Positions 3,183-15,709 are shown, counted from the stretch's first letter. The stretch is DNA of 15,709 nucleotides from Clostridiales bacterium (GCA_031263605.1 JAISFM010000153.1:1-15709), one strand, 5' to 3'. Program-made: numbers and translations. The notes: generated by a model from the letters alone, not told the origin.

Positions 3183-3284
3183 GACGCCCCGCGCTTGCTG
3201 CCGCGAGGCGGCGGATAGAAAAACAGCAGAACTTGCGGCGGCCTTTCGCCTTTTATTTTCGCAAGGGGCCTGTGTATAGTTTAA

Positions 3285-3318
3285 TCGGACGGTTTATTTT
3301 GTGCGCCGTCCGATTTTT
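3285..3318 (+). terminator. Rho-independent terminator (tcggacgg-loop-ccgtccga + TTTTT). A second ccggaccgg + T7 hairpin lies at 3324-3345.
   Basis: 8-bp perfect stem followed by a T-run, downstream of the DUF1540 CDS. Confidence 0.65.
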
Positions 3319-3397
3319 CCGTTTGAAGCCGGACCGGTTTTTTTATCGCGCTTGCCTTTTGACGGGCATAGCGCGAGAAAAAGGCCCGTTTAATCAT

Positions 3398-4015
3398 TTA
3401 GCGGTTTCCGGTTCGGGGCCTTTGATAGTTCGGGTTTTTTATCTTGATCCACGCCTCGGCGCGCCGCCCGGGGAAATACTGCCCGTCCGACCGTTTGGCG
3501 ACAATCCCTTCTAAATTTTCCCGCGCGGCCGCTTGGAACAACGCTTTGCCCGCCGACGGGAAAACGTCGGTCAATTCGATATTGGCGAAATTCGCGCCGG
3601 CGAATAACCTTTCCAATACCTTGCGCCGCTCTTGCCAAGGCCGCTCTGTCAGGGTTTTGCCGTCCGACGCCAAAAGATCGAAAACGGCATAGCGGACGGG
3701 GGTTTCCTTTAAAAACCGCGCGGACGGTTTTTCGACCCGGTCGCGTTTTAGCAAACGATAGAAATCGGGCCGTCCGTCCGCGTTCAGCGCGATAATTTCG
3801 CCGTCCAAAACAACTTTGCGGTTTAAGTTTTTTAATTCGGCGGCGATTTCGGTATAGGTATTCGTTCGCCCGTGCCCCCGGCGGTTGACAAGGCGCGCGT
3901 CCCCGTCCCCGCAATAGGCCAGCATCCTCACGCCGTCGAATTTCAATTCAAAAACATAATCAGGGCTGTCGAACGCTTTTTCCGCCCTCGACAGCAGCAT
4001 CGGTTTAAATTCCAT
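3398..4015 (-). CDS. ATP-dependent DNA ligase, nucleotidyltransferase domain only (205 aa). It ends immediately after motif V. There is no OB domain and no recognisable SD, so it may be a truncated remnant or pseudogene.
   Basis: Motif I is KFDGVR (KxDGxR). FDLL (III), EGIVAK (IV) and WIKIK (V) are in the canonical order. The reverse complement of 4016-4035 shows no GGAGG. Confidence 0.65.
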   Translation of the reverse strand: MEFKPMLLSRAEKAFDSPDYVFELKFDGVRMLAYCGDGDARLVNRRGHGRTNTYTEIAAELKNLNRKVVLDGEIIALNADGRPDFYRLLKRDRVEKPSARFLKETPVRYAVFDLLASDGKTLTERPWQERRKVLERLFAGANFANIELTDVFPSAGKALFQAAARENLEGIVAKRSDGQYFPGRRAEAWIKIKNPNYQRPRTGNR

Positions 4016-4254: not shown

Positions 4255-4350
4255 GCGATTAGCGTCCAGTGTTGCCAATCTCTGTATAAAAATGTGCGTT
4301 TCGTGTTTTGTAGAGATTGCCGCGTCGCGCTGCGCGCTCCTCGCAATGAC
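4255..4350. repeat. R1 palindromic element, copy a. The right arm is gtagagattgccgcgtcgcgctgcgcgctcctcgcaatgac (4310-4350); the left arm is degenerate.
   Basis: The right arm is shared with copies at 4489-4530, 4540-4559 (partial), 5345-5386 and 12401-12441. The central tataaaaa..gcgtttcgtgtttt is shared with the 12326-12441 copy. Confidence 0.65.
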
Positions 4351-4374
4351 TTCGGCCGTTGCGCTCGCAACAGA

Positions 4375-4427
4375 GTTGCAGCGGAATTAAAAGGCGGGCG
4401 GAATTGCGCCGGATTTTTGCGGCAAAC
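4375..4427. repeat. Dispersed repeat R2, copy 2
   Basis: Matches 2672-2728. Confidence 0.6.
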
Positions 4428-4488
4428 CGAATGACAGAGGGCAGCGCGTTCGGAATGAGAGAGAAAAGCGCGGGGCGTTCCGGTGGTT

Positions 4489-4559
4489 GGTAGAGATTGC
4501 CGCGTCGCGCTTCGCGCTCCTCGCAATGACAACGGGGCGTTTGCGCTCCTCGCAATGAC
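4489..4559. repeat. R1 right-arm copy (4489-4530) plus a partial tandem right-arm fragment (4540-4559)
   Basis: ggtagagattgccgcgtcgcgcttcgcgctcctcgcaatgac, followed by gtttgcgctcctcgcaatgac. Confidence 0.65.
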
Positions 4560-4660
4560 CCCGTATTCATTTCGCTGCAAGTCTAATGACCGGTAATAGT
4601 TTGTACACTCCCCACCGTAAAACACTGGCGTAAAATAAAGTAATATGATATACTATTGCC

Positions 4661-4800
4661 ATTAAACGACATTTTTCTCATGTTGACCCGTCAAGGCGGG
4701 TCTATAAGAAGAAAACAATCCGGCTCCAAGCGGAAAATCGGACAGAGCACATAAAAGAATGTTCGTACCGGATCGATACCCCGCGGCTTGCGCGTTGACG
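4661..4800 (+). ncRNA. R3, a conserved ~140-nt intergenic element, copy 1. The second copy is at 15365-15506. It is either a candidate structured leader/small RNA or a dispersed repeat.
   Basis: Two same-orientation copies at roughly 80% identity. One stem, tccgN/tcgga, shows a G-U to A-U change between copies. An internal gacccg-tcaagg-cgggtc hairpin is present in copy 1. Both copies end with a TTGAC(G/A) hexamer. Confidence 0.35.
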
Positions 4801-4868
4801 TTCGCAGAGCCCGTCCCCCGATTGGACGTTACCAAACAAAAATAGAGTACATAAGGAGAATACATACA

Positions 4869-5066
4869 ATGGCAACGGCAACCCCTATTCATGTGACGCC
4901 CCGTCCCGACGGGAAATGGCAGGTCATCAGAGGCGGCGGCGAAAAAGCGTCGGCCGTGACCGACACCCAAGCCGAAGCGATCGAAATCGCGAAAGGGTAC
5001 TCCCACAACGACGGCGCGCAGGTCATCGTCCACGGCCGCGGCGGCAAAATCCGCAAAAGTTGGTAA
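4869..5066 (+). CDS. DUF2188 family small protein (65 aa)
   Basis: AGGAGA RBS 7 nt upstream of the ATG. The sequence HVTPRPDGKWQVIRGGGEKASAVTDTQAEAIEIAKGYSHNDGAQVIVHGRGGKIRKSW matches the DUF2188 pattern (HV.P..DG.W.V...G..RA....T.AEAI..A......g..v.iHg.DGkI). Confidence 0.7.
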   Translation: MATATPIHVTPRPDGKWQVIRGGGEKASAVTDTQAEAIEIAKGYSHNDGAQVIVHGRGGKIRKSW

Positions 5067-5191
5067 GAAAGGCTTGATAGTATAGCCCCCCCTTTCCGGA
5101 AACCCGTCCAAACCGGCGGGTCTTTTTGCATGGCACGGCGGCACGGGGGAAGTGAGAATCGAGAAATGTTGGAATTTAGTGGTTAGTGATT

Positions 5192-5327
5192 AGTGTCGGT
5201 CGGGGGATGTTTGCGCGGGGAAACCACCCCGTAGCCTGTCGGCGGCATCCCTCCGAGGGAGGGGAATAGAGAAGTGAGAATTGAAAATTGAAAATTGAGA
5301 AGTGTCGGTCGGGGGATGTTTGCGCGC
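5192..5327. repeat. Direct 26-mer repeat agtgtcggtcgggggatgtttgcgcg (5192-5217 and 5301-5327) flanking purine-rich (gaaaatt)n microsatellite-like sequence
   Basis: Exact duplication read from the sequence. Confidence 0.6.
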
Positions 5328-5344
5328 GGGGCGTTCCTGTGTTT

Positions 5345-5386
5345 GGTAGAGATTGCCGCGTCGCGCTTTGCGCTCCTCGCAATGAC
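5345..5386. repeat. R1 right-arm copy
   Basis: ggtagagattgccgcgtcgcgctttgcgctcctcgcaatgac. Confidence 0.65.
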
Positions 5387-5408
5387 GAAGCGTTCCTGTG
5401 TTTGTTTG

Positions 5409-5480
5409 CTTACCGTTTATCTTTTACTTCTTACCTCTTACCTTGTTATCTTTACACCTTTCCCTCTCCCCTTTTCTCCC
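5409..5480 (+). repeat. ~72-nt pyrimidine (CT)-rich low-complexity tract
   Basis: cttaccgtttatcttttacttcttacctcttaccttgttatctttacacctttccctctccccttttctccc. Strong strand asymmetry. It mirrors the purine-rich tracts at 5147-5190 and 5269-5300. Confidence 0.55.
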
Positions 5481-5522
5481 AAATTCTCAATTAAAAAATA
5501 TTTCGGTACCTGCGCAAAAACA

Positions 5523-5575
5523 GTTGACAAAGTATTTAGGTATCTGTTATAATATAGTTAGGTACCGATAAATAG
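5523..5575 (+). promoter_or_regulatory. Sigma-A-type promoter with an overlapping inverted repeat that is a likely MarR operator. -35 is TTGACA at 5523-5528, spacer is 17 bp, and the extended -10 is TGtTATAAT at 5546-5554. The repeat is atttaggta...taggtgcctaaat.
   Basis: Canonical hexamers with correct spacing, about 50 nt upstream of the marR-family CDS. The inverted repeat tatttaggta / ataggtgcctaaata brackets the -10. Confidence 0.65.
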
Positions 5576-5604
5576 GTGCCTAAATAAAAAGGAGGGACAT
5601 TATT

Positions 5605-6294
5605 ATGTCTAAACAAACTAAGGAACTGTACGAAAAACTGATGCGGCTGCAACGGATTTTGCGCCGCTTCCAATTCCACACCAAAATCGCCAACGGGCCC
5701 ATGAGCGACACGGCGCAAGGGCAGGGCAGGGTCATGGCTATCCTGAAAATGCGCCCCGAAATAAGTGTGGGCGACCTGGCCTATTTGTTGGGGATACGCG
5801 CGTCCTCGCTGAACGAACTCCTCAACCGGCTGGAAAAGGGCGGCTATATCACCCGGACGGCCTCGGAGGAGGACAAGCGCGTCGTCATCGTGCGCCTGAC
5901 CGAAAAGGGCAAAAACGAGGAACTGCCCGACACCGGCGTCGAATCCATGTTCGATTGCCTGAACGAGGGCGAACGCAAAACCCTTGGGGAATACCTCGAC
6001 CGGATTTTGGCCGCGCTGAAGGACAAGGTGGGCGACGAGCGCGACGATTTCGACCTGATGAAGGCCTTGCGGCAACGCAAGGGCGAACAATTCGGGCGCG
6101 ACTTCGAGCGTTTCGGCAGAGGCGTAGAACGGTTCGGCGAGGACTTTGAGCGCAAAATGCGCGGGTTCTTCGACGGCTTTCACGGGGGAGAGGATGCCGA
6201 TTGCGCGGAGGATCCCGACGACGGCGCAGAGGCCGGCGAAAAGCGCGGCGATAACGACGGCGAAGGGCAGGACGACGGCGGCAAAGTGGATTAA
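5605..6294 (+). CDS. MarR family transcriptional regulator with a C-terminal acidic low-complexity extension containing FGRDFERFG / VERFGEDFER repeats
   Basis: AAGGAGGG RBS. The winged-HTH core is GDLAYLLGIRASSLNELLNRLEKGGYITR...DKRVVIVRLTEKG. The last ~80 aa are D/E/G/R-rich. Confidence 0.8.
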   Translation: MSKQTKELYEKLMRLQRILRRFQFHTKIANGPMSDTAQGQGRVMAILKMRPEISVGDLAYLLGIRASSLNELLNRLEKGGYITRTASEEDKRVVIVRLTEKGKNEELPDTGVESMFDCLNEGERKTLGEYLDRILAALKDKVGDERDDFDLMKALRQRKGEQFGRDFERFGRGVERFGEDFERKMRGFFDGFHGGEDADCAEDPDDGAEAGEKRGDNDGEGQDDGGKVD

Positions 6295-6317
6295 GGTTTT
6301 TTGAAGGGGGGGGCGGC

Positions 6318-6543
6318 ATGAGCGGGGCTGTAATGGCGCGGAAAAAATCCCGCGCTGTCCCGCATGCTGCCGATGACCTATTGCTTGGATTTGTGCCGCG
6401 CGGTCGTTTGCGCGGGGGCGCCGGAATACGCCGACGTAGTACTGTTCGACCCGTGGGTCAATTTCGCCGCGATAGCGGGCTTGACGGCGGTGTTTTTGGT
6501 TTTAGGCGCGTTCTTTTTTGCGAGGGCGGCAAAGAAGAAATAG
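6318..6543 (+). pseudogene. Small membrane protein gene interrupted by an apparent +1 frameshift at an A6 run (6342-6347). ATG 6318 has a strong GAAGGGGGGGG RBS but runs into a Gly/Arg-rich non-coding-looking frame. The +1 frame (6334-6543) encodes ...MLPMTYCLDLCRAVVCAGAPEYADVVLFDPWVNFAAIAGLTAVFLVLGAFFFARAAKKK, with GC3-rich, hydrophobic, coding-like codon usage.
   Basis: RBS position and codon bias (GC3) were compared between the two frames. A homopolymer lies at the frame junction. The 59-aa +1-frame ORF falls below the ORF-track cutoff. Confidence 0.4.
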
Positions 6544-6593
6544 TAATTTTGCGATAAACGGATCGGACGGCCGATAAAACCCGTTTCGCGCGT

Positions 6594-6622
6594 TTGCCGA
6601 AACAAAAAAAATGTGGTATAAT
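6594..6622 (+). promoter_or_regulatory. Promoter: -35 TTGCCG (6594-6599), 17-bp spacer, extended -10 TGgTATAAT (6614-6622)
   Basis: Canonical spacing. It is followed about 25 nt later by a terminator-like hairpin, and the tRNA gene lies ~120 nt downstream. Confidence 0.5.
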
Positions 6623-6645
6623 TTATGCGTCGGTTTGCAAGGCGG

Positions 6646-6684
6646 CACGCGCCGTTCGATGAGGACCGGCGCGTAAATTTTTTT
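6646..6684 (+). terminator. Terminator-like hairpin (gcacgcgccg...cggcgcgt) followed by aaaTTTTTTT
   Basis: 8-9 bp GC stem plus T7 run. It could terminate the marR/small-ORF transcript, or define a ~55-nt transcript from the 6594-6622 promoter. Confidence 0.5.
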
Positions 6685-6741
6685 AACGGGCGTTTTCTTA
6701 ACGTATGCCCGCCGAAAAAAACAAGCGCGCAAATCTTTTAT

Positions 6742-6816
6742 TGGGGTGTAGCCAAGCGGTAAGGCACGGGACTTTGACTCCCGCATTCGTAGGTTCAAAT
6801 CCTCCCACCCCAGCCA
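6742..6816 (+). tRNA. tRNA-Gln (anticodon TTG)
   Basis: Cloverleaf folded by hand. Acceptor tggggtg/cacccca. Anticodon stem cggga/tcccg with loop cTTTGac (U33, A37). T-loop ttcaaat. Discriminator g plus encoded CCA. There is one T-stem mismatch and a 3-bp D-stem. Confidence 0.8.
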
Positions 6817-6930
6817 GATTGATCAAGCGAAACCCGGTTGCAAACCGAGCGAAACGCCCAGTTCAAGCGATATGCGGAAATGCGGAAATATGAGTTGTCC
6901 CTAACCTCTTTGGGGCCGTTGCGGGATGGA

Positions 6931-7920
6931 TTATTTTTGCGGCGTATGCATAAGCCGGAGTTGTTTTGCCAACCGTTCTTTGATTTGGCCTACAAAGCCT
7001 TGCGGGCTTAGGACTTTTACGGTGGGGCCGAAAGACAGTATCCGAATGAGCAATTCCGTTTCATCCGCAATATCGTAAGAGAGTTGGCAGGTATAAATAC
7101 CGCGATCGGGGTCATATTCGGTTTTGCGGTCAAAAGAGGCGAATTGCAACAGGAAACGTTCCAACGCATTCCGCTCCTTCGTGATTTCAAGCGTTATCGG
7201 CGGATTGGCATTCGGTTCTGTGAACAATTTGCGCACGATTTCCGGCGGCGCGCGGTGCGGCAAGCCCGACGGCTCAACCGAAACGATTCTGCCGAGATTT
7301 AAGGTTACTTTATTCAATTTTTGCGTTTTGGCGTTGAATGCGGCGCACAGCAGGCGGAATTTATCGTTAAGAGATGAATAACTTAATTTGAACGGGTGAT
7401 AGGCGCGTTGCGACCGCCCGACCCTTTCGCTGTGATAAACGATTGCGACGGGATACTTGTTTTTGCAGGCTTTTAGCAGTTCACGGAAGTTGGCGATATA
7501 AGCCGGGTCGCCGTAAGGGTCTCCGTCAAGGTGGCGGTCAACGGAAATAAAATCGCCCGCGTCAAAGGCGGGGGCGACGCCGCTTAACGCCCGCGCCAGC
7601 GTCGCCAGAGTTTCATCGCTTAAAAACAACCTTATGCGCGGGTCGGACAATAACGCTTTCAGCCACGATAATTCAAGTTGCGTCAGCGGCCGGATCGGCT
7701 GCGCGTCCAATTTTGAATAGTATAAATCGCCGCGCTTTTCCAGAAAGTTCCAGTCGCCGTCCAAAAGTTCGGGCAACAGGTGGAATGCCGTCTCGGAAAA
7801 ACCGTGTTCGCTTACGACGGCGTCGATATCTTTTTTGGAGACGCCGCCGCCGGCGCGCTTAACAATACGCGAAACTATGCCGTAGTAGCAGCCGTACAGT
7901 TCGGAAAACAGTTTACTCAT
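6931..7920 (-). CDS. WYL domain-containing protein, 329 aa (PafC-like partner). A WYL-like core (FRLLCAAF...LNLGRIVSVEP) is followed by a WCX-like C-terminus (ELLIRILSFGPTVKVLSPQGFVGQIKERL). Start at ATG 7920 with a GGGAGGAGG RBS, overlapping the upstream gene's stop by 8 nt.
   Basis: The C-terminal ILSFGP.V.VL.P motif is characteristic of WYL/WCX regulators. The N-terminus is paralogous to the upstream gene (MSKLFSEL vs MAEFSEL). The ORF-track M at 8007 lacks an RBS, so internal M30 with a strong SD is chosen. Confidence 0.65.
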   Translation of the reverse strand: MSKLFSELYGCYYGIVSRIVKRAGGGVSKKDIDAVVSEHGFSETAFHLLPELLDGDWNFLEKRGDLYYSKLDAQPIRPLTQLELSWLKALLSDPRIRLFLSDETLATLARALSGVAPAFDAGDFISVDRHLDGDPYGDPAYIANFRELLKACKNKYPVAIVYHSERVGRSQRAYHPFKLSYSSLNDKFRLLCAAFNAKTQKLNKVTLNLGRIVSVEPSGLPHRAPPEIVRKLFTEPNANPPITLEITKERNALERFLLQFASFDRKTEYDPDRGIYTCQLSYDIADETELLIRILSFGPTVKVLSPQGFVGQIKERLAKQLRLMHTPQK

Positions 7921-9145
7921 CGCCCGCCTCCTCCCGTATCCCGTACATCTCGGCCATGCGGCGGATATCGGCGGCCAGTTTTTTTTCAAGCCGGTCGGTC
8001 GATTCAAAAGATATAAGTCTGCCGATAAAAGTTTTTACCCACGGCATCGCTTCGTTAGCGTCGAATATATCCTTGGAAAACTTAAAAGTATTGTCGCCGA
8101 CGCGCTCGAACGCGCCGCCGCGCCCTTCCTTGTTTATCCTGCTTATAATATGCTTTTCACGGTTCTCGTCGATGCGCAGGGTCATAGAAAACCCCCTTTC
8201 GTTCCTTGAATCGCCGTCGAATGAAACGCCCCAGACCCTGCCGATGTTTCGGGAGAGGGATTCCTGTATTTCCATATAGTTTTCGACCGGTTCTAAGGCC
8301 GCGACGGATTTGATTGCGTCGAGGCGGTAGGTTGAAAACCTGCGGGAGGCGGGGAGGTACGCGCAAAGGTAGCGGCGGCCGCTCCAAAAACTGCACAGGA
8401 TTTTTGCGGGCACGACTCTGTTTTTTACCGGTTTCCCGCTTTTTGCGCCGACGAGTACGGCCTCGATTTCTTTATGTTCGCGCAGGGCGTCCAGAATATC
8501 GAAAAGGATTCCGTCTTCAAGCGTGTGCGCTATGTAATGGTGCTTGAACACGAATAAATCGTTTTCACAGCCGGTATTGTCCAAGATATAGTCGCCGATT
8601 ATGCCCAAGGCGCCGCTTTGGAAAAATTTGACGGCGTCCAAGATTTCGTCGTCTAAATTTACGGTGTTTTTTGATAGGCTGTAACGGAACGCTTTGCCGT
8701 TCTTTTCTTTGGTCAGAATGCCCAATCCCGCGTACTCGGCGCACTTGCCGCGCACGGTTTGCAGGTCAAAGAAGTTGCCGCTTTTAGCCGATATTTCATC
8801 GGTCAATTCGTCCGCCGACTTATCGCCGGTTTGCAACGCGTCCAAAATGTAAAAGTGCAGCATAATATCGTTGCCTGTGAAACTCTTGCTTTTCCACGCC
8901 GCGAATAAAGGGTTGGCGGGGATTTTTCCGCAATCCGCGGAAACGAACGAAACCTTACTGCCGCCGGCATAAGCCCATTTGAAGTTTTCGCCTAAATAAC
9001 TTTCGCAGCGGCGTTTTTCGTTATCGTATGTGCGGGCGGATTTCAATGAAAAATCATCGCGCGCCTTAAACCCGTATATGTAAAAGTCGCGCATAAAGTC
9101 TCTGATTTTATTGAAGTTTTTAATGAGTTCCGAAAATTCCGCCAT
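7913..9145 (-). CDS. WYL domain-containing protein, 410 aa (PafB-like partner). WYL motif: PAKILCSFWSGRRYLCAYLPASRRFSTYRLDAIKSV. C-terminus: MPWVKTFIGRLISFESTDRLEKKL.
   Basis: Start at ATG 9145 (GAGGT RBS), chosen over the ORF-track start at 9262. WYL consensus is wYLvay...r..R.frLdRI. It is translationally coupled (8-nt overlap) to the downstream WYL paralog. Confidence 0.65.
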   Translation of the reverse strand: MAEFSELIKNFNKIRDFMRDFYIYGFKARDDFSLKSARTYDNEKRRCESYLGENFKWAYAGGSKVSFVSADCGKIPANPLFAAWKSKSFTGNDIMLHFYILDALQTGDKSADELTDEISAKSGNFFDLQTVRGKCAEYAGLGILTKEKNGKAFRYSLSKNTVNLDDEILDAVKFFQSGALGIIGDYILDNTGCENDLFVFKHHYIAHTLEDGILFDILDALREHKEIEAVLVGAKSGKPVKNRVVPAKILCSFWSGRRYLCAYLPASRRFSTYRLDAIKSVAALEPVENYMEIQESLSRNIGRVWGVSFDGDSRNERGFSMTLRIDENREKHIISRINKEGRGGAFERVGDNTFKFSKDIFDANEAMPWVKTFIGRLISFESTDRLEKKLAADIRRMAEMYGIREEAGDE

Positions 9146-9214
9146 AGCGTACAACCTCGAACTATGCGTACATATTGTATCAAAAAAACGCGCGCAAGTC
9201 AAAGTAACGGAAGG

Positions 9215-9270
9215 CTCGCAAACTTTTTTATACGCAAAACCGTGTTTTTCGGGTTTTCGCAAACTTTTCT
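9215..9270. promoter_or_regulatory. Divergent intergenic region with direct repeats, a candidate operator for the WYL pair or the rtcB promoter. The repeats are ctcgcaaactttttta (9215-9230) and ttcgcaaacttttct (9256-9270), plus cgcaaaac at 9233-9240.
   Basis: Repeats are spaced ~41 bp apart (about four helical turns) between the WYL-B start (9145) and the rtcB start (9342). TTGATA and TATAAT-like hexamers are present at 9291-9312. Confidence 0.4.
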
Positions 9271-9341
9271 ATTCGGTAATTATAGATCGGGCTTGATATA
9301 ATGGCGGTATAATCAAAACGATCAAACGGAGGGCAAAAGCA

Positions 9342-10574
9342 ATGTTCACGGTAAAAAACAAAAAAATGAAGTTTCCGATTAAGGCTTGGCTTAAAAACAG
9401 AAGCCAAACGGAAGAGGGGTGTTTGGAGCAGGCCATGCGCCTTGCCGAGATGCCGTTTTTACATAAATGGGTCGCCCTTATGCCCGACGCGCATGTCGGA
9501 ATGGGAATGCCTATCGGCGGCGTTATCGCTGCGAAAGGCGTTGTAATCCCGAACGCGGTCGGCGTCGATATCGGGTGCGGCATGGCTTATGCGGGGACGG
9601 ATATCAGGGTTGCGGAGGTACGGGGAATCGCCACAGGCAACGGGCCGTTCATGCAGGCCCTTGTGGGGGATATACTCCGCAACATTCCGGTCGGCTTTAA
9701 CCGCCATAAGACAAAACAGGCTTGCGCCGCTTTGGACAAGGCGGCCGCCGAGGCGGATAAATACGCGGCGAACCCCGAACTTGCCCGGGAGATAGAAAAC
9801 GGATACTATCAAGCCGGAACGTTGGGCGGCGGCAATCATTTTATCGAAATTCAGGAATCCGACGACGGATTTTTGGGAATCATGATCCATTCGGGCAGCC
9901 GCAACTTCGGAAAGCAAATATGCGACTATTATCATAAAGCCGCCCGCGCGCTCAACGAAAAGTGGTACGCGCCTATTCCCGACGAATGGCGGCTGGCGTT
10001 CTTGCCGATCGACAGCAAGGAAGGGAAACAATATATCGACTGGATGAATCTTGCGCTTGACTTTGCCTATGAAAACCGCGCGTTGATGTTGAAGGCGACG
10101 CAAAACATACTGGACAGGATGATGCAAAAATACGCGCATGCCGACTATAAGTATACGGACGAGATTAACTGCCACCACAATTACGCCGCTATCGAGCATC
10201 ATTATGACGCGAACGTCTGGGTTCACCGTAAGGGCGCGACAAGGGCGAGAGCGGGCGAGAGGGCTGTAATCCCCGGAGCGATGGGCTCTTACAGTTATAT
10301 CGTCGAGGGATTAGGGAATGCGGAAAGTTTTTGTTCGAGTTCTCACGGCGCGGGCAGGCGGTATTCCCGTAAGGGCGCGACGGAAGCGTTTACGGCCGAA
10401 CAGGTACTGCGCGACTTAAAGGGGCAAGGCGTTGTGTTGGGCAAAAACAACAAAGCCGACGTCGCCGAAGAAAGCCGCTTCGCGTACAAGGACATAGACG
10501 AAGTTATGAGCAATCAAAAAGACCTCGTTAAAGCCGTAACGCGCTTGAAAACCGTGGGCGTCGTAAAGGGCTGA
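9342..10574 (+). CDS. rtcB: RNA ligase RtcB (3'-phosphate/5'-OH RNA-splicing ligase), 410 aa
   Basis: GGAGGG RBS. Hallmark segments: PDAHVGMGMPIGGV, GVDIGCGM, GGGNHFIEIQ, HSGSRNFG, CHHNYA, and SSHGAGR containing the nucleophilic His. Confidence 0.9.
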   Translation: MFTVKNKKMKFPIKAWLKNRSQTEEGCLEQAMRLAEMPFLHKWVALMPDAHVGMGMPIGGVIAAKGVVIPNAVGVDIGCGMAYAGTDIRVAEVRGIATGNGPFMQALVGDILRNIPVGFNRHKTKQACAALDKAAAEADKYAANPELAREIENGYYQAGTLGGGNHFIEIQESDDGFLGIMIHSGSRNFGKQICDYYHKAARALNEKWYAPIPDEWRLAFLPIDSKEGKQYIDWMNLALDFAYENRALMLKATQNILDRMMQKYAHADYKYTDEINCHHNYAAIEHHYDANVWVHRKGATRARAGERAVIPGAMGSYSYIVEGLGNAESFCSSSHGAGRRYSRKGATEAFTAEQVLRDLKGQGVVLGKNNKADVAEESRFAYKDIDEVMSNQKDLVKAVTRLKTVGVVKG

Positions 10575-10599
10575 CAAAGCGTACTAAGGGCTTTAAAAC

Positions 10600-10760
10600 C
10601 CTAAAATACATCTGTTATTATCCTATACGGACGGTTTCTATGCCGTCGTGGTGCCCTTCGTCTCTGACCGTCGGGTATGCCGGATAGTAATAGGCCCCCG
10701 CGGTTGGGATTACCGCTCCGAGACAGTATGCGGGTTCGATTCCCGCGCCAAGTAATTGGA
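10600..10760 (+). ncRNA. Candidate tRNA-like/Y-RNA-like (YrlA-type) non-coding RNA downstream of rtcB. It contains a canonical T-arm gcggg-TTCGATT-cccgc (10730-10746) and a plausible anticodon-like hairpin gcggt-tgggatt-accgc (10700-10716). No complete cloverleaf or acceptor stem could be folded.
   Basis: A T-arm consensus (GGTTCGATTCC) sits in a 500-nt gene-free region immediately 3' of rtcB. The minus-strand ORF 10618..10926 translates to ...GAGIEPA..., the classic artefact of reading a tRNA T-arm in reverse. Module boundaries are uncertain. Confidence 0.35.
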
Positions 10761-11080
10761 TGTTGGCAACAGAAAGCGGCCTGATAAGCCACAGTATTTG
10801 AAACTGTTCAAGGAAAACCGGATTTGAAGCAAGGGCTTCCGGCGCGTTCGCCAAAGCGGGCAATGCCCGTAGCGGCGATGCGCGCGGCGGCTTTCTTGTC
10901 CGCGGCGCGGGGATACCGTTCGGCAAACCTTAAACCCATAACGCTTTTTACGAAAGGCGCACGCCGGATAAGGCCGCCCGAACTCAACCGCCGCCCCACA
11001 AAAAAGGCGCGGAAGCCTTTGCGGAAAATCTTATTCAAACACAAAAACAACAAAAAAACAAATTTAGGAGAAGCGGAGAA

Positions 11081-12184
11081 ATGAAAATCATCATCCATCA
11101 AAACGAGCGCGGTTTCTTATTCAAGAACGGTACATACAAGAGGATGCTGCAACCCGGCAAAAACAAGGTAAATACTTTTTTAGGCGAGACCTTTGTGCGC
11201 GTCGGTTTGGACAAACCGGTTAAGGTCGCCGGTACGGATACGGAGATTTTAATGCGGGACGCGGAGTTTGCCGCAAGCGTGTTAAAGGTTGACGTCCCCG
11301 ACGGCTGTTTCGGCGCGGTTTTCAAGGACAACTGCATCAAGGACATCTATAAGGCGGGTAGTCATGTCTTTTTCAACCTCTACGGCAACCTGTCTTTCAA
11401 ATTGATCGACATTTCCAAGGTGGAGGTTGAGGACCTGACCCCTTCGCAGATTGACAGCCTGCCGAAAGGCCTTTACAAAAAGATTGTCGTTGCCGAGGGC
11501 GAGGTGGGTTTGTTAAATCTTGACGGTAAGTTTGTCCGTGAACTGAAAGCGGGCGCGTACTGCTTTTGGGATGCTTATACCGCCGTAACTTGCGAGAAGG
11601 TCGATTTGCGCTCTCAGGAACTGGAAATTAACGGTCAAGAGATTTTGACCGCCGATAAGGTATCTTTGCGCGTAAACTTTATCGCGAACTACCGCGTCAC
11701 GGACGCCGTTAAAATCACCGGAGAGGTCAAGAACTACAAGGAGCGCATCTATACGGTTACGCAACTGGCTTTGCGCGAGTATATCGGCAAGTTCCGTTTC
11801 GACGAACTTTTGGAACAGAAAGAGAATATCGCGTCAAGCGTTTTGACCCAACTTCAAGCAAAGTTCGGCGAATATTGCGTTGAGTTTACGGGCGCGGGCT
11901 TAAAGGACATCGTCCTGCCCGGCGAGATTCGGGACATCATGAACACCGTTCTGATTGCCGAGAAAAACGCTCAAGCCAACGTTATCGCCCGTCGCGAGGA
12001 GGTCGCGTCCACCCGGAGTTTGCTTAACACGGCCAAACTTTTGGACGAAAACGCCACGCTTTACAGGTTAAAGGAAATGGAATATTTAGAAAAAATCTGC
12101 GACAAGGTCGGCACAATCTCCGTCGGCGGCGGCAGCCTCTTAACCGAACTTCAAAAAATCGTCGGCGCGCCCCGGGCTAAATAG
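11081..12184 (+). CDS. SPFH/band-7 (stomatin/prohibitin/flotillin-like) domain protein, 367 aa
   Basis: AGGAGAAGCGGAGAA RBS. SPFH-like core: LREYIGKFRFDELLEQKENI...IVLPGEIRDIMNTVLIAEKNAQANVIARREE. Confidence 0.6.
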   Translation: MKIIIHQNERGFLFKNGTYKRMLQPGKNKVNTFLGETFVRVGLDKPVKVAGTDTEILMRDAEFAASVLKVDVPDGCFGAVFKDNCIKDIYKAGSHVFFNLYGNLSFKLIDISKVEVEDLTPSQIDSLPKGLYKKIVVAEGEVGLLNLDGKFVRELKAGAYCFWDAYTAVTCEKVDLRSQELEINGQEILTADKVSLRVNFIANYRVTDAVKITGEVKNYKERIYTVTQLALREYIGKFRFDELLEQKENIASSVLTQLQAKFGEYCVEFTGAGLKDIVLPGEIRDIMNTVLIAEKNAQANVIARREEVASTRSLLNTAKLLDENATLYRLKEMEYLEKICDKVGTISVGGGSLLTELQKIVGAPRAK

Positions 12185-12331
12185 GCTTGCGGCGAAAATG
12201 AATCACCCTGCGGCAAGACCGCGAGGAATTTACCCGGAGAGATTAAAAGGTAAGCGGAAAGACGCCCAAAGGCCGCCCGCGAAAATGTCCGCGCCGCGAG
12301 GTCGGGAGTGGACAAATAGCGATGATACTGG

Positions 12332-12441
12332 GTCATCGCGAGGAGCGAACGCAGTGAGCGACGAAGCAATCTCTATATAAAAAGGCGCGTTTCGTGTTTT
12401 GTAGAGATTGCCGCGTCGCGCGTCGCGCTCCTCGCAATGAC
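12332..12441. repeat. R1 element, complete inverted-repeat copy. Left arm gtcatcgcgaggagcgaacgcagtgagcgacgaagcaatctcta; central tataaaaaggcgcgtttcgtgtttt; right arm gtagagattgccgcgtcgcgcgtcgcgctcctcgcaatgac. It is followed by the R4 module gtttgtacaccactcccgtgagg (12466-12510; compare 4598-4625).
   Basis: The arms are reverse complements of each other over ~40 nt. Same family as 4255-4350 and others. Confidence 0.7.
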
Positions 12442-12521
12442 TTGCCGTGTTTACAATCAACGCGGTTTGTACACCACTCCCGTGAGGTTAACAGTTTCTA
12501 CACCCGCGAGGTTAAAATCGT

Positions 12522-12550
12522 TTGACGGCGGGCGAATTTTAGTATATAAT
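12522..12550 (+). promoter_or_regulatory. Promoter for the rtcB2-prfH operon: -35 TTGACG (12522-12527), 17-bp spacer, -10 TATAAT (12545-12550)
   Basis: Canonical hexamers with correct spacing. A leader ORF and terminator follow. Confidence 0.6.
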
Positions 12551-12580
12551 ATTTATATCCTGCAAACGGAGGGTCTTATC

Positions 12581-12616
12581 ATGCGTGTGCAAAATTTGGA
12601 AAATTTAATAGTTTAG
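12581..12616 (+). CDS. 11-codon leader ORF (MRVQNLENLIV) with a strong GGAGGG RBS 7 nt upstream
   Basis: Perfect SD and spacing, sited between the promoter and an intrinsic terminator. Speculative as a regulatory leader peptide. Confidence 0.35.
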   Translation: MRVQNLENLIV

Positions 12617-12642
12617 AACGGTAAAATCGTACTCTTGATAGG

Positions 12643-12671
12643 AGCCGCGGTTTTTCGCCGCGGCTTTTTTA
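12643..12671 (+). terminator. Intrinsic terminator (agccgcgg-tttttcg-ccgcggct + T6) in the leader of the rtcB2-prfH operon. The 3' half ccgcggcttt is repeated at ~12718-12730 (ccgccgcggctttggcg), and a second hairpin cggcttg...caagccgTTTTcat lies at ~12698-12751, consistent with alternative attenuator structures.
   Basis: 8-bp perfect GC stem plus T-run. The duplicated 3' strand was read directly. Confidence 0.6.
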
Positions 12672-12776
12672 ATGTCTAAAACGGGAATATTCCTTTTTAC
12701 GGCTTGTCTGTTAATCCGCCGCGGCTTTGGCGATTTTTAGGCAAGCCGTTTTCATATGTCAATAAAAAAGGAATTT

Positions 12777-13850
12777 ATGAATACAAATAACAAATTGACT
12801 ATCGTCTCGGACGATAAAAACTGGATGGAGGGCAGCGCGGTAAATCAAGCCCGTGAGGTTTGCAATCTTGACGGGGTTCAAGCCGTGTTCGCTATGCCCG
12901 ACCTTCACGCGGGCAAAACGCCCGTAGGGGTAGTCGTCATCACAAAGGGCAAAATCTACCCTCATTTAATCGGCTCGGATATCGGTTGCGGAATGAGTAT
13001 ATTCTCGACCGGCGTCGAGAGCAAAAGAATCAAAACGGACAGGTGGGTTAGCCGCCTTAACACGATCAAAACCTTGGCGGCGGTTCCGAATAGCGAATAC
13101 CGTTTCGATTGCCCGATACCGGATTTCGGAAGCATAGGCTCCGGCAACCATTTCGCCGAGTTTCAAGCAATCCACGAGGTCTTTGACGCGGGCGGTTTGG
13201 CGGCTCTGGCAATGGACAAATCCGAACTTTTTATGACCGTTCACAGTGGATCGAGAAGTTACGGGAGTAAAATCTTGCAAGAGTTTAACGACCGCAACGG
13301 CTACGCCGCGGACGGCAAAGAGGCAAAAGGATATCTGGAAAAACACGGCGACGCTCTTTTTTGGGCGGCAAAGAACAGGTATGAGTCGGCAAAGAAGTTA
13401 ATCGATTACTTGGGCTTTTCGCAAGCGGTAGAGCGCAAACTGGAATGCGGCCATAATTTTTTGGAGCGGTCCGGCGGCTTGTATTATCACCGCAAGGGAG
13501 TTGTGTCCGCTCAAACCGGCGCAGTGCTTATCGCGGGTTCGAGAGGGACGCTCAGTTACATCGTAAGGCCGACGGCTAAATGCGCGGAGTACGGTTACAG
13601 TTTGGCGCACGGTAGCGGCAGGAAATGGGCGCGCAGTATGTGTAAGCCCCGCATTCGGGAAAAGTACACCTTGGAAACAATCAAGCGGAACAAGTTCGGC
13701 GGCCAACTGGTTTGCCACGATTACGGTTTGCTGTTCGAGGAAGCGCCGGACGCGTACAAGAATGTGGACGTTATTATTGCCGTATTGGAACGGTACGGCA
13801 TGATTGAGCGCGTCGCCGCCCTCAAACCTGTGCTTACTTTTAAGGGTTAG
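12777..13850 (+). CDS. rtcB2: RtcB-family RNA ligase paralog (release factor H-coupled RtcB2), 357 aa. ATG 12777 with an AAGGA RBS is preferred to ATG 12756.
   Basis: RtcB motifs: MPDLHAGKTPVGVVV, GSDIGCGM, GSGNHFAEFQ, HSGSRSYG, CGHNF, and AHGSGRK containing the nucleophilic His. It sits immediately upstream of prfH. Confidence 0.85.
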   Translation: MNTNNKLTIVSDDKNWMEGSAVNQAREVCNLDGVQAVFAMPDLHAGKTPVGVVVITKGKIYPHLIGSDIGCGMSIFSTGVESKRIKTDRWVSRLNTIKTLAAVPNSEYRFDCPIPDFGSIGSGNHFAEFQAIHEVFDAGGLAALAMDKSELFMTVHSGSRSYGSKILQEFNDRNGYAADGKEAKGYLEKHGDALFWAAKNRYESAKKLIDYLGFSQAVERKLECGHNFLERSGGLYYHRKGVVSAQTGAVLIAGSRGTLSYIVRPTAKCAEYGYSLAHGSGRKWARSMCKPRIREKYTLETIKRNKFGGQLVCHDYGLLFEEAPDAYKNVDVIIAVLERYGMIERVAALKPVLTFKG

Positions 13851-13864
13851 GGGGGGAGGAGCGT

Positions 13865-14476
13865 ATGTTATACCACATAACGGCGGGGCGCGGCCCTGCG
13901 GAATGCGAACTTGCGGTCGGAAGGTTTCTGGCCGTTTTGGCCGCCGAGACGGACGTTGAGGTTTTGGCGAAGGCGGAAGGGCGGTACGCGGGCTGCCTGA
14001 AATCCGCGCTTGTGAGGGCGGGCATAAACGGCCCGCCCTTGCAAGGCACGGTGCAATGGATATGCAGAAGCCCGTTCCGCCCTAACCACAAGAGAAAGAA
14101 TTGGTTTATCGGCGTTAACCGAATGGACGAGCCGAAAGATTGCGGTTATGAAATCGGCGGCGGCGGCGGCGTGGTTTTTCAGACCTTCGGCGCGAGCGGC
14201 AAGGGCGGGCAGCACGTAAACAAAACGGAATCCGCCGTCCGCGCCATCCATATCGCAACGGGGCTTACGGCGACCGCAAGCGGCGAGCGCAGCCAACATC
14301 AGAACAAGAAAACCGCCGTGGAGCGGTTGAATGAGTTGCTTCGGCAACGGGAGGACAGCCGGGATCTTTCCGAAAAGGGCGCGCTCTTTTTCAACCATAA
14401 TAACCTGTCCCGCGGCAGCCCCGCGCGGATATACGAGGGTATCGGCTTTAAGCGGATTACAGGAGATACAACATGA
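13865..14476 (+). CDS. prfH: Peptide chain release factor H (PrfH): a short RF homolog with the GGQ motif, lacking the codon-recognition domain 1. 203 aa.
   Basis: GGAGGAG RBS. SGKGGQHVNKTESAVRAIHIATG is the class-I RF peptidyl-hydrolase GGQ loop. The ~200 aa size and rtcB paralog adjacency match the RtcB2-PrfH module. Confidence 0.85.
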   Translation: MLYHITAGRGPAECELAVGRFLAVLAAETDVEVLAKAEGRYAGCLKSALVRAGINGPPLQGTVQWICRSPFRPNHKRKNWFIGVNRMDEPKDCGYEIGGGGGVVFQTFGASGKGGQHVNKTESAVRAIHIATGLTATASGERSQHQNKKTAVERLNELLRQREDSRDLSEKGALFFNHNNLSRGSPARIYEGIGFKRITGDTT

Positions 14477-15354
14477 GGATTATTTCAAATTTTAAGGACT
14501 ACTACGACTTTGCGGGCTTTGCCGCGCGTGACGGCGATTATAGGGAAACCGTATACTTGCGCAAGCCCGCGTTAAAAGTAACGGACGTGCCGCAGGAATA
14601 TGCCGACGCCAATCCTCAAAATTATTACGGCGGCGGCTTGGACGCGGTTACATCGAAGTGGTGGACGAAAAACAAAAAGGTATTTTCTTTGCCCGATACG
14701 CCCGGCGGCGCGCGGCCGGGCTGCCTTTTTGTATGCGGTAAAGCCTATCCGTTTTTATTCCTGCGCGGGGCGGCTCGAATCGGCGCGGACGGTAAAGGCG
14801 GGCAAATTAGGTTTTCAAAGTATTTTAACGACGCTATCAAAGACAGTATCGCTAAAAAGCGGGAAAAGCATAATTGGGAGCGCGATAGAAAAGACGAGGA
14901 CGAATTCAATTTTTTTAGAGTTTATTATTCTATGCGTGAATTTTTTGAGGACGCGACGGCCGAAAAGCATACCGTTTATTATTCCCGACGGTATAGATCG
15001 GATAATTTAGAGCGCGACCTAACGCGATTCTTTGACTTTTATGAGGGCAAAGATTTTACCGAGTTGCATTTGCGTTTGGATTGCCCGATTTTCCTTACGC
15101 TTTTTCAGGAAAGCGGAGTTAGGCGGGGCGATTTACGGCGCGAATACGAATTTGTTTTAAATCCGAACCTCTATGAATTTGATTTCGCAAGGGTTATGAG
15201 CGGCGATATTTTAGCGCAGGAACTGGATATGTTTTTAGGGAACGCGCTTGTCAAGGACAGTATGCCGCTTTCATACCAGTCCGATATCGATAAACTGACG
15301 GCATACGGTTTCGACGCCGTAACGTCGTTTCGGACTATAAAAGACAAGAAATAG
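14473..15354 (+). CDS. Hypothetical protein, 293 aa. Its start overlaps the prfH stop (ATGA), making it the third gene of the rtcB2-prfH operon.
   Basis: The 4-nt overlap implies translational coupling. GC3-rich coding-like usage. No recognisable motif. Confidence 0.6.
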   Translation: MRIISNFKDYYDFAGFAARDGDYRETVYLRKPALKVTDVPQEYADANPQNYYGGGLDAVTSKWWTKNKKVFSLPDTPGGARPGCLFVCGKAYPFLFLRGAARIGADGKGGQIRFSKYFNDAIKDSIAKKREKHNWERDRKDEDEFNFFRVYYSMREFFEDATAEKHTVYYSRRYRSDNLERDLTRFFDFYEGKDFTELHLRLDCPIFLTLFQESGVRRGDLRREYEFVLNPNLYEFDFARVMSGDILAQELDMFLGNALVKDSMPLSYQSDIDKLTAYGFDAVTSFRTIKDKK

Positions 15355-15364
15355 CCCGCCTCAT

Positions 15365-15506
15365 TTAAACGGACATTTTTCTCATGTTTGCCCGTCAAGA
15401 AAGCCCAATCAGAAGAAAATAGTCCGACTTCAAGCGGAAACATCGGACAGAGTAGAAAGAAAAATGCCCGTATCGGGTCGATATCTCGCGGCTTGCCGCG
15501 TTGACA
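15365..15506 (+). ncRNA. R3 conserved element, copy 2, beginning 11 nt after the operon stop. It is followed by a perfect GC hairpin ccccgccg-cttg-cggcgggg at 15541-15560.
   Basis: Aligns with 4661-4800 over its whole length. Confidence 0.35.
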
Positions 15507-15627
15507 GATTAAACTATACCACTCTTAACCTACATGATGCCCCGCCGCTTGCGGCGGGGCGGGTGCCCCTTCGATCGGCCGCGGGAATAAAAACATTAGT
15601 TTCTTTCAGAAACTTGCGTTCAAACGC

Positions 15628-15690
15628 TTGACAAGGAGGGGAGCGATGTGGTAGTATATACAGGCTGTCTTTAAAAGGCAGTTGTTTTTT
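15628..15690 (+). promoter_or_regulatory. Promoter-like TTGACA (15628-15633) with an 18-bp spacer and TAGTAT (15652-15657), followed by a short hairpin plus T-run (15662-15690) at the window edge
   Basis: Hexamer match only. The downstream context is cut off by the window end. Confidence 0.3.
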
Positions 15691-15709
15691 GCACTTTTTA
15701 GGGCGTTGG

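Follow-up and report, generated by a model that had tools for sequence, protein, structure and literature searches.

R3, a modular hairpin-forming intergenic repeat in an RNA-repair neighbourhood of a Clostridiales genome

Introduction

A conserved element of ~140 nt, here termed R3, is found both in front of a DUF2188 gene and behind an RNA-repair operon in one contig of a Clostridiales bacterium. This raises the question of whether it is an RNA gene, a regulatory signal, or a repeat dispersed between genes. The contig (JAISFM010000153.1, 15,709 nt; locus tags LBL66_) belongs to the metagenome-assembled genome (MAG) GCA_031263605.1. It was analysed over its entire 15.7 kb and is referred to here as the window; its first gene is incomplete and extends past the contig start. 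An earlier note on this DNA had described two copies of the element and suggested a structured RNA or a promoter-bearing cassette.

On balance, we lean towards reading R3 as a lineage-restricted, modular, hairpin-forming intergenic repeat of REPIN/BOX/MITE-like type (MITE, miniature inverted-repeat transposable element), which would be co-transcribed with its neighbours as hairpins in their untranslated regions (UTRs). It is a new family of a known kind and fits no named family. The evidence lies in the number and placement of its copies, in its modular hairpin anatomy, and in its distribution among relatives.

Copies of R3 in the window

The window contains three good copies, A, B and C, and one fragment, D, as follows.

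Copy A: 4661..4800, plus strand; full-length, with an ATTAAAC head, hairpin H1, linker and hairpin H3, and a 35-nt 3′ module (CGCG/CGCG hairpin, TTGACG); covariance model 65 bits.
Diverged terminal motif of copy A: 4820..4832, plus strand; GATTGGACGTTAC where other copies have GATTAAACTATAC, with a 19-nt insertion in between; from alignments and direct reading.
Copy B: 15364..15506, plus strand; full-length; covariance model 79.7 bits.
Terminal motif of copy B: 15507..15519, plus strand; GATTAAACTATAC, 13 nt, common to copy C (3286..3274); it again has the ATTAAAC that every window copy carries at its 5′ edge.
Copy C: 3274..3395, minus strand; head, H1, linker, a perfect 9-bp H3 and the terminal motif, without the 35-nt 3′ module.
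Fragment D: 6681..6735, plus strand; 5′ half only, ~77% identical to copy C (hand count on the alignment), without H1.

Copies A and B had been described as co-linear and about 80% identical, and this is borne out. Alignment by blastn of 4662–4799 with 15365–15505 gives 80.85% identity over 141 columns (E 3.7e-31 and 4.3e-29 against the window itself in two runs), and MAFFT agrees, with two 1-nt indels. The longest exact match is ~17 nt. The long blocks quoted as invariant, AAGCGGAAA(-/C)ATCGGACAGAG and CGCGGCTTG(-/C)CGCGTTGAC, are present in both copies. The two copies are real, but they are not a pair: they are members of a family that includes C and D in the window, and E and F in relatives. 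The earlier note also missed hairpin H1 and the 13-nt tail GATTAAACTATAC, which lies beyond the 3′ end it had given. That a single contig of 15.7 kb has more than two copies, and has them in both orientations, supports the multi-copy nature of R3.

Copy C is detected by blastn at E 5.5e-10 and by nhmmer, in a self-search of the window, at E 2.5e-27. It consists of the first 109 nt of the element followed by the same 13 nt that follow copy B, and the TATAC after this edge motif is also common to B and C. Fragment D gives nhmmer E values of 0.045 and 0.0019, covariance model E values of 0.024–0.087 and a fold z-score of +0.14.

The copies differ in their surroundings. Copy A is within the predicted 5′ UTR of the DUF2188 gene (4869–5066, Pfam E 1e-20), which begins 69 nt beyond the end of the copy, and leads straight into the ribosome-binding site of that gene. 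Copy B begins 10 nt past the stop codon (15352–15354) of orf3, the third gene of the rtcB2-prfH-orf3 operon, in which the source names for rtcB2 and prfH are ‘release factor H-coupled RctB family protein’ and ‘peptide chain release factor H’. Both of these locations had been given correctly. Copy C begins 2 nt after the stop codon of a gene with an ATP-dependent ligase domain (3398–4015, minus strand), and it precedes a terminator hairpin (~3226–3260) shared by this ligase-like gene and a convergent DUF1540 gene. Fragment D is located in the leader of tRNA-Gln (6742–6816).

Copies A and B, as direct repeats, bracket a stretch of 10.7 kb, and other copies (D and, in a relative, E) touch tRNA genes. 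It might be asked whether A and B are attL/attR-type repeats that bound an integrated island with RNA-repair genes and tRNA-Gln. This explanation is effectively refuted: there is no integrase or recombinase gene between A and B, the identity is only 81%, with an exact block as short as stated above and no identical core, a third copy is found outside the bracket in the opposite orientation, and copies are present at unrelated loci in relatives. An integron attC/att site was likewise rejected, as the ends of R3 are direct and not complementary, the longest match is the same ~17 nt, and there is no integrase.

Copies in related genomes

Two further copies were detected in related DNA. One is in a locus (L017) of the related genome GCA_026001225.1, which was reached via a DUF1540 protein >90% identical to that of the window.

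Copy E: L017:11341-11407; diverged; right after tRNA-Arg(ACG) and before a membrane-sensor open reading frame (ORF); nhmmer E 3e-6 prior to joining the profile.
Copy F: L020:4546-4610; marginal, in a more distant relative; flanked by prs and by a gene for a hexapeptide-repeat transferase (glmU-like by our own reading); nhmmer E 0.008.

The density is thus 3.5 copies in the 15.7-kb window and 1 copy in 12.5 kb of L017. Copies A, B, C, D and E all have the orientation of the nearest gene (5/5); B, C and E start 2–10 nt from the 3′ end of the upstream gene, and A, B and C all neighbour RNA-repair genes.

The site of copy C can be compared between genomes. The DUF1540 and ligase genes are convergent in L017 too, but the spacer between them differs: in the window it has copy C and is 215 nt long, and in L017 it is 89 nt and holds a single perfect terminator hairpin and no copy C. 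A presence/absence polymorphism at an orthologous site is therefore seen for copy C, with flanks that are too diverged to give an exact empty site. This absence, together with the varied contexts of the copies, which lie after and before protein genes and tRNAs, makes a dispersed family a better explanation than a dedicated small RNA (sRNA) gene.

No copy was found by blastn, nhmmer or a covariance model downstream of the orf3 orthologues (orf3 ~60% identical) in five related rtcB2-prfH-orf3 loci, and an Ldh-anchored contig from this organism likewise has none. Across ~105 kb of related DNA, neither a sequence profile nor a structure-aware model picked up another copy, and running the covariance model with filters off added none in the window and L017.

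Two other assemblies of the same sequence bear on the copies. An independent short-read assembly from the same organism (L001) is identical to window positions 12424–15394; it starts inside a copy of another repeat family, D1, and ends 31 nt into copy B. A break inside B is the pattern expected if near-identical copies occur elsewhere in the genome, although this is indirect, and low coverage would break the assembly likewise. A strain variant from the same sequencing run (L018) is 99.65% identical to the window, with 5 differences in 1442 nt, three of which fall inside the 122-nt copy C (3334, 3338 and 3347). By our own reading, two of these three make C like A or B, which could be due to gene conversion between copies or to assembly mixing.

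Searches outside the lineage

Comparison with Rfam, which the earlier note had recommended, gave no match for A or B even at E 10, but only noise of 8–15 bits; throughout the window, tRNA-Gln alone reaches the gathering score of an Rfam family. No match was obtained by blastn against plasmid and phage collections, or in a scan of viral contigs with a 25-nt core pattern. A pattern scan of genome contigs (AAGCGGAAAN{0,1}ATCGGACAGAG) gave two chance matches, in a Bacteroidota MAG and a Verrucomicrobia MAG, and these match in the pattern only. Eight matches came from a scan of metagenome contigs (GTCCGATN{0,1}TTTCCGYTTGRAG), none of which extends beyond ~21–25 nt around the pattern. The best reading of these searches is that R3 is probably restricted to one lineage, i.e. 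this termite-gut-type Clostridia genome and its relatives.

A chimeric query containing all open frames of A, B and C (six-frame) found nothing at E ≤10 among 5.8 billion proteins. In addition, the reading frame of A differs from that of B/C owing to 1-nt indels within the conserved core. R3 is non-coding, based on these frame-shifting indels and the null peptide search, and a small protein was rejected because the frames shift between copies.

Modular structure and folding

The complete unit would comprise, in order, the ATTAAAC head, H1, a conserved linker, H3, an optional 35-nt module with a CUUG loop, and the GATTAAACTATAC tail. Its edges are direct repeats, ATTAAAC at the 5′ side and GATTAAAC(TATAC) at the 3′ side. 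R3 looks modular: C does not have the 35-nt module, A has the 19-nt insertion, D has the 5′ half only, and a hairpin like the CUUG hairpin recurs outside the copies. The principal parts are located as follows.

H1 of copy A: 4667..4722, plus strand; eroded outer stem (CG..A / U..CG), inner UUUUCU/AGAAAA and GACCCGU/GCGGGUC; z-score −2.26, with 7/200 shuffles folding equally well.
H1 of copy B: 15370..15426, plus strand; CGGAC/GUCCG, 2x2 internal loop, UUUUCU/AGAAAA (5 + 6 bp) and weak inner pairs; −15.2 kcal/mol, z-score −3.26, 0/200 shuffles.
Tip motif (G/A)CCCGUCAA: 4687–4695 (A), 15390–15398 (B) and 3364–3356, minus strand (C); invariant.
Linker, with the stem region of the earlier note: 15422..15448, plus strand; GUCCGA-N15-UCGGAC, 27 nt, its 5′ strand common to H1; direct reading.

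H1 is the dominant feature. It is an imperfect hairpin of ~60 nt with the 5′ arm CGGAC-AUUUUUCU and the 3′ arm AGAAAAU-GUCCG, and its z-scores were obtained against dinucleotide shuffles, 200 for each copy. In copy C, H1 is formed by CGGGCC/GGUCCG, UUUUU/AAAAA, UCGCGCU/AGCGCGA and UGCC/GGCA (−29.7 kcal/mol, z-score −5.21, 0/200 shuffles), and in copy E it is a perfect stem of 15–16 bp (z-score −5.7, 0/200 shuffles). At the tip, CCCGUCAA is invariant and the remainder differs among copies. The tip pairs with itself in A (GACCCG/CGGGUC), in C (by the last two of the helices just given) and in E (GACGG/CCGUC); B has only the weak inner pairs. The tip motif was also considered as a mimic of the 16S decoding site, because its 8-mer GCCCGUCA matches the 16S rRNA 1400 region, a universally conserved stretch adjacent to the site that RtcB2/PrfH repair. 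This was rejected, as such a match is at chance level (130-nt element vs 1.5-kb rRNA) and there is no helix 44-like pairing with AGUCCG.

The linker that follows H1, GUCCGR-CUUCAARCGGAAA(N)A-UCGGAC, is the most conserved block of R3; it is near-invariant in A, B and C and ends in a second CGGAC. H3 is a short hairpin that pairs CGGACA with UGUUCG in A and, with one mismatch, CGGACA with UGCCCG in B; in C it is perfect. The 35-nt module is found in A and B and is absent from C and E. It contains a CGCGG-CUUG-CCGCG hairpin and TTGAC. The hairpin resembling it is found 40 nt after B (A 121–138 vs 15536–15553), and the similarity is weak (89% over 18 nt, blastn E 0.077).

By direct reading, there are four occurrences of the CGGAC motif, which alternate in orientation. 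The four segments, CGGAC(1), GUCCG(2), CGGAC(3) and GYYCG(4), can pair as 1:2 + 3:4 or as 1:4 + 2:3. Both arrangements are found as minimum-energy folds, 1:4 + 2:3 in the whole of B, and 1:2 + 3:4 in C and in the H1 of B alone. This is no proof of a switch, as any alternating inverted repeats have such a property. The stem predicted in the earlier note, UCCGG/UCCGA with UCGGA and a change of G-U to A-U, belongs here. B has A-U where A, C and E have G-U, and this is the sole variation in a stem that can form in all copies. However, it represents only an alternative pairing, since its 5′ strand is the 3′ arm of the stronger H1.

The repeated CGGAC/GTCCG half-sites, the TTGAC(G/A) that ends both A and B, and the regulator genes nearby suggest a further possibility, that R3 functions as DNA: as an outward promoter with TTGAC as the −35 element, or as an operator array for the local WYL/WCX or MarR regulators. 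We consider such a DNA-level cassette highly unlikely. The shared ending is present in A and B as had been pointed out, but no usable −10 is located 16–18 nt after TTGAC in either copy, a promoter scan is empty there, and neither C nor E has the TTGAC module. It should be added that B and C are downstream of genes, with C between convergent genes, where an operator would have nothing to regulate, and that the rtcB promoter region beside the WYL genes (9263–9341) has no such motif. The promoter-bearing cassette of the earlier note is therefore not upheld.

A template/variable repeat pair of a diversity-generating retroelement was rejected as well, as the window has no reverse transcriptase and, by our own reading, the A/B differences are not confined to adenines.

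R3 as a candidate functional RNA

An sRNA family, in which the copies are paralogous and independently transcribed genes, has one feature of copy A in its favour.

Extended −10 promoter-like motif upstream of copy A: 4644..4654, plus strand; TATGATATACT (TRTGnTATAcT); direct reading.

As judged from the position of this motif, transcription would start at ~4661, which is exactly the first base of copy A; a consensus promoter scan that requires a −35 element found nothing at 4644–4654. The presence of several hairpins and of a conserved linker that looks single-stranded also fits an sRNA. However, the promoter-like motif is found only at A, and B and C abut upstream stop codons and have no promoter. 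No copy ends in a hairpin and U-run, Rfam has no match, and the passage of A into the DUF2188 ribosome-binding site is more simply explained by a 5′ UTR. Independent sRNA genes are thus quite improbable.

More serious is the alternative of a cis-acting structured RNA that the cell uses in the UTRs of stress and RNA-repair genes, as a stabiliser, a processing site or a two-fold switch. The shared orientation of A, B, C, D and E with the adjacent gene fits this well, as do the short distances of B, C and E from upstream 3′ ends, the position of A at a predicted transcription start, and the RNA-repair genes that flank the window copies. At the level of structure, the 27-nt linker is nearly invariant in A, B and C, the two mutually exclusive folds are both minimum-energy structures in different copies, and a few paired changes preserve H1: A-U to G-U or G-C at columns 8/60, and A-U to C-G at columns 10/58. 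But in the covariation check that had been proposed, H1 does not exceed the controls in a set of six sequences, a small number for such a test: 75% of the cells in H1 are paired and two pairs change on both sides; 67/500 shuffles reach this score and slid controls are similar. In addition, the sense strand of the whole element has z-scores of only −0.6 to −1.1, and in 12/13 segments compared the fold of the antisense strand equals or surpasses that of the sense strand in stability. Nothing therefore singles out one RNA strand, and G-U pairs favour neither strand overall. The lack of an Rfam family, the absence of R3 after orf3 orthologues in five related operons, the missing copy C at the orthologous site in L017, and the unrelated genes beside E and F (tRNA-Arg and a sensor; prs) also argue against a cis-acting RNA, which we hold to be possible but doubtful.

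A more specific version is that R3 is an undescribed cis-regulatory RNA, a two-fold switch in the UTRs of RNA-damage-response genes (rtcB2-prfH-orf3, the ligase-like gene and DUF2188) and near tRNA genes, so that the expression of these genes or the stability of their transcripts would respond to RNA damage or RNA-end chemistry. We regard this as unlikely. Thus, of the structured RNA originally proposed, a conserved non-coding intergenic element with a potential for structure stands, and an sRNA or cis-regulatory role is not demonstrated in view of the covariation, strand and Rfam results.

R3 as a proposed dispersed repeat

According to the interpretation we favour, R3 would be a small non-autonomous repeat, with copies gained or lost at different intergenic sites of this genome and its relatives, and these copies would ride passively in the UTRs of neighbouring genes. 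The genome appears prone to repeats, since at least one more family of palindromic repeats is found on this contig. For the host, the most likely consequence would be that the hairpins serve as structured transcript ends. Copy A would be at the 5′ end of the DUF2188 mRNA, B and C would be in the 3′ UTRs of rtcB2-prfH-orf3 and of the ligase-like gene, and E would come after tRNA-Arg. There they would slow down decay by exonucleases or serve as marks of processing sites.

Several points weigh against a dispersed repeat. There is no target-site duplication of variable sequence, and no transposase gene in the window or the loci. The description as dispersed and multi-copy is an extrapolation from 4–6 copies in 15.7 kb plus 12.5 kb. 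Each of the five confident copies is co-oriented with the nearest gene, and the 27-nt linker is more conserved than a neutral repeat needs; together these two findings hint at selection on the transcript. The location of A, B and C beside RNA-repair genes could reflect function instead of chance, and L017 without copy C could represent a loss and not a gain.

Small palindromic repeats have been catalogued mostly in Proteobacteria and in a few Firmicutes. If R3 is indeed a dispersed repeat, it adds a family of this type to a poorly sampled lineage of termite-gut-type Clostridia, it explains assembly breaks in these MAGs, and annotators are warned against calling its copies sRNA genes or promoters. 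The finding would have greater weight if R3 sets the ends or the stability of its RNA-repair transcripts; to our knowledge, no RNA-level control of the rtcB2-prfH operon has been described.

Neighbouring genes and other repeats

The contig is an RNA-repair neighbourhood, with two RtcB paralogues, PrfH, a 205-aa protein with a ligase adenylation domain, a Nudix protein and a metallophosphatase. It also encodes two adjacent WYL/WCX regulators divergent from rtcB, a slipin, a MarR regulator, and the DUF2188 and DUF1540 proteins. The orf3 product lacks a Pfam domain, and no more than 15 homologues of it are detectable; orf3 follows rtcB2-prfH in four fetched loci (P0001, P0003, P0006 and P0008).

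The second repeat family, D1, is unrelated to R3. It is found at 4276–4352, 4456–4532, 5312–5388 and 12367–12443, with an inverted partner at 12332–12380. The copies are 64–94% identical to the reference over the full 77 nt, and ~85–95% identical in a conserved core. D1 starts with GTAGAGATTGC, its core begins GTAGAGATTGCCGCGTCGCGC...CGCGCTCCTCGCAATGAC, and there is an inverted doublet at 12332–12441. Two long imperfect palindromes of ~160–180 nt, 72–73% self-complementary, are at 2658–2834 and 1019–1180. One arm of the first recurs at 4364–4417 (86% over 59 nt, blastn), and these represent further intergenic repeats.

The 500-nt spacer after rtcB (10575–11080) has a perfect tRNA-like T-arm, GCGGGTTCGATTCCCGC (10730–10746), amid GC-rich hairpins. 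Neither ARAGORN nor Rfam makes a call in 10575–11080, where the best Rfam result is a sub-threshold Pseudomon-groES on the other strand. Possible identities of this spacer element are a partner of RtcB that resembles a tRNA or a Y RNA, and the remnant of a tRNA.

Upstream of rtcB2 there is a near-consensus promoter, TTGACG-17-TATAAT (12522–12550), followed by an 11-codon ORF (12581–12616, MRVQNLENLIV) with a good ribosome-binding site, and then by a hairpin and T-run (12644–12671) ~85 nt before the rtcB2 start. On its arrangement, 12522–12671 looks like a putative leader-peptide attenuator for the ribosome-repair operon. Near the contig end, at 15628–15709, a strong promoter-like TTGACA-18-TAGTAT with TG is immediately followed by a hairpin and T-run (15663–15690), a possible short leader or small RNA.

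Comparison with known repeat systems

Small bacterial repeats have been reviewed (PMC3184786). R3 is placed outside the named families because its arms do not have the palindrome of REPs/REPINs and its ends do not have their tag, and because it shows neither the terminal inverted repeat nor the variable duplication of MITEs.

REPINs, or REP doublets, are described mainly in Proteobacteria rather than in Clostridia (PMC3116915; PMC3337134, Bertels and Rainey). The spacers of REPINs differ between copies and yet self-pair (PMC3337134), and R3 has the same kind of long imperfect hairpin, with conserved arms and a variable spacer that pairs with itself. Like REPINs, it is non-coding and intergenic, often located downstream of genes or between convergent genes, and it is lineage-specific, has no target-site duplication, and is present alongside other repeat families. 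Unlike those of REPINs, its arms, CGGACAUUUUUCU and AGAAAAUAGUCCG, have no internal palindrome by direct reading, and R3 has extra 3′ modules (linker, H3, H4 and tail). It also differs from REPs and REPINs in having no terminal GTAG/CGTC tag: GTAG is absent, and CGTC is found only in the tip motif CCCGTCAA. No gene for a RAYT (HUH-Y1) transposase was found in the window or the fetched loci.

The GTAG- and CGTC-tagged REPs are 20–40 bp in length, with stems of 6–13 bp, loops of 2–5 nt and a terminal tag (Di Nocera et al., 2013; PMC3733652). R3 resembles these repeats (PMC3733652) in that it is palindromic, lies for the most part behind coding regions, is plausibly transcribed and is often composite, but its H1 is ~60 nt with a tip of 20–30 nt and there is no terminal tag. 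The D1 family of the window, with its leading GTAG and its doublet, is similar to GTAG-tagged REPs/REPINs and is a closer fit to this class (PMC3733652) than is R3.

As with MITEs, R3 is small (~110–155 nt), has inverted outer arms, is found near gene ends, and is present or absent between related genomes. MITEs with terminal inverted repeats include Correia/NEMIS and RUP. In R3, however, the inverted repeat closes only the 5′ 60 nt (H1), and the edges of the element are the direct repeats ATTAAAC and GATTAAAC. There is no variable target-site duplication; every window copy is flanked by one and the same motif of 7–8 nt, which, being invariant, reads as part of R3 or as a fixed target. We know of no parent insertion sequence for R3.

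BOX of Streptococcus pneumoniae and bcr of the Bacillus cereus group are Firmicute intergenic repeats of ~100–200 nt that are modular, predicted to fold, and co-transcribed, with no fixed function. BOX has a defined A-B-C order of modules, and bcr1 has a TTTAT duplication; R3 displays neither of these, nor was sequence similarity to BOX or bcr found. Nevertheless R3 has in common with both that it is a Firmicute intergenic element of the same size class, built of modules that may be present, absent or repeated.

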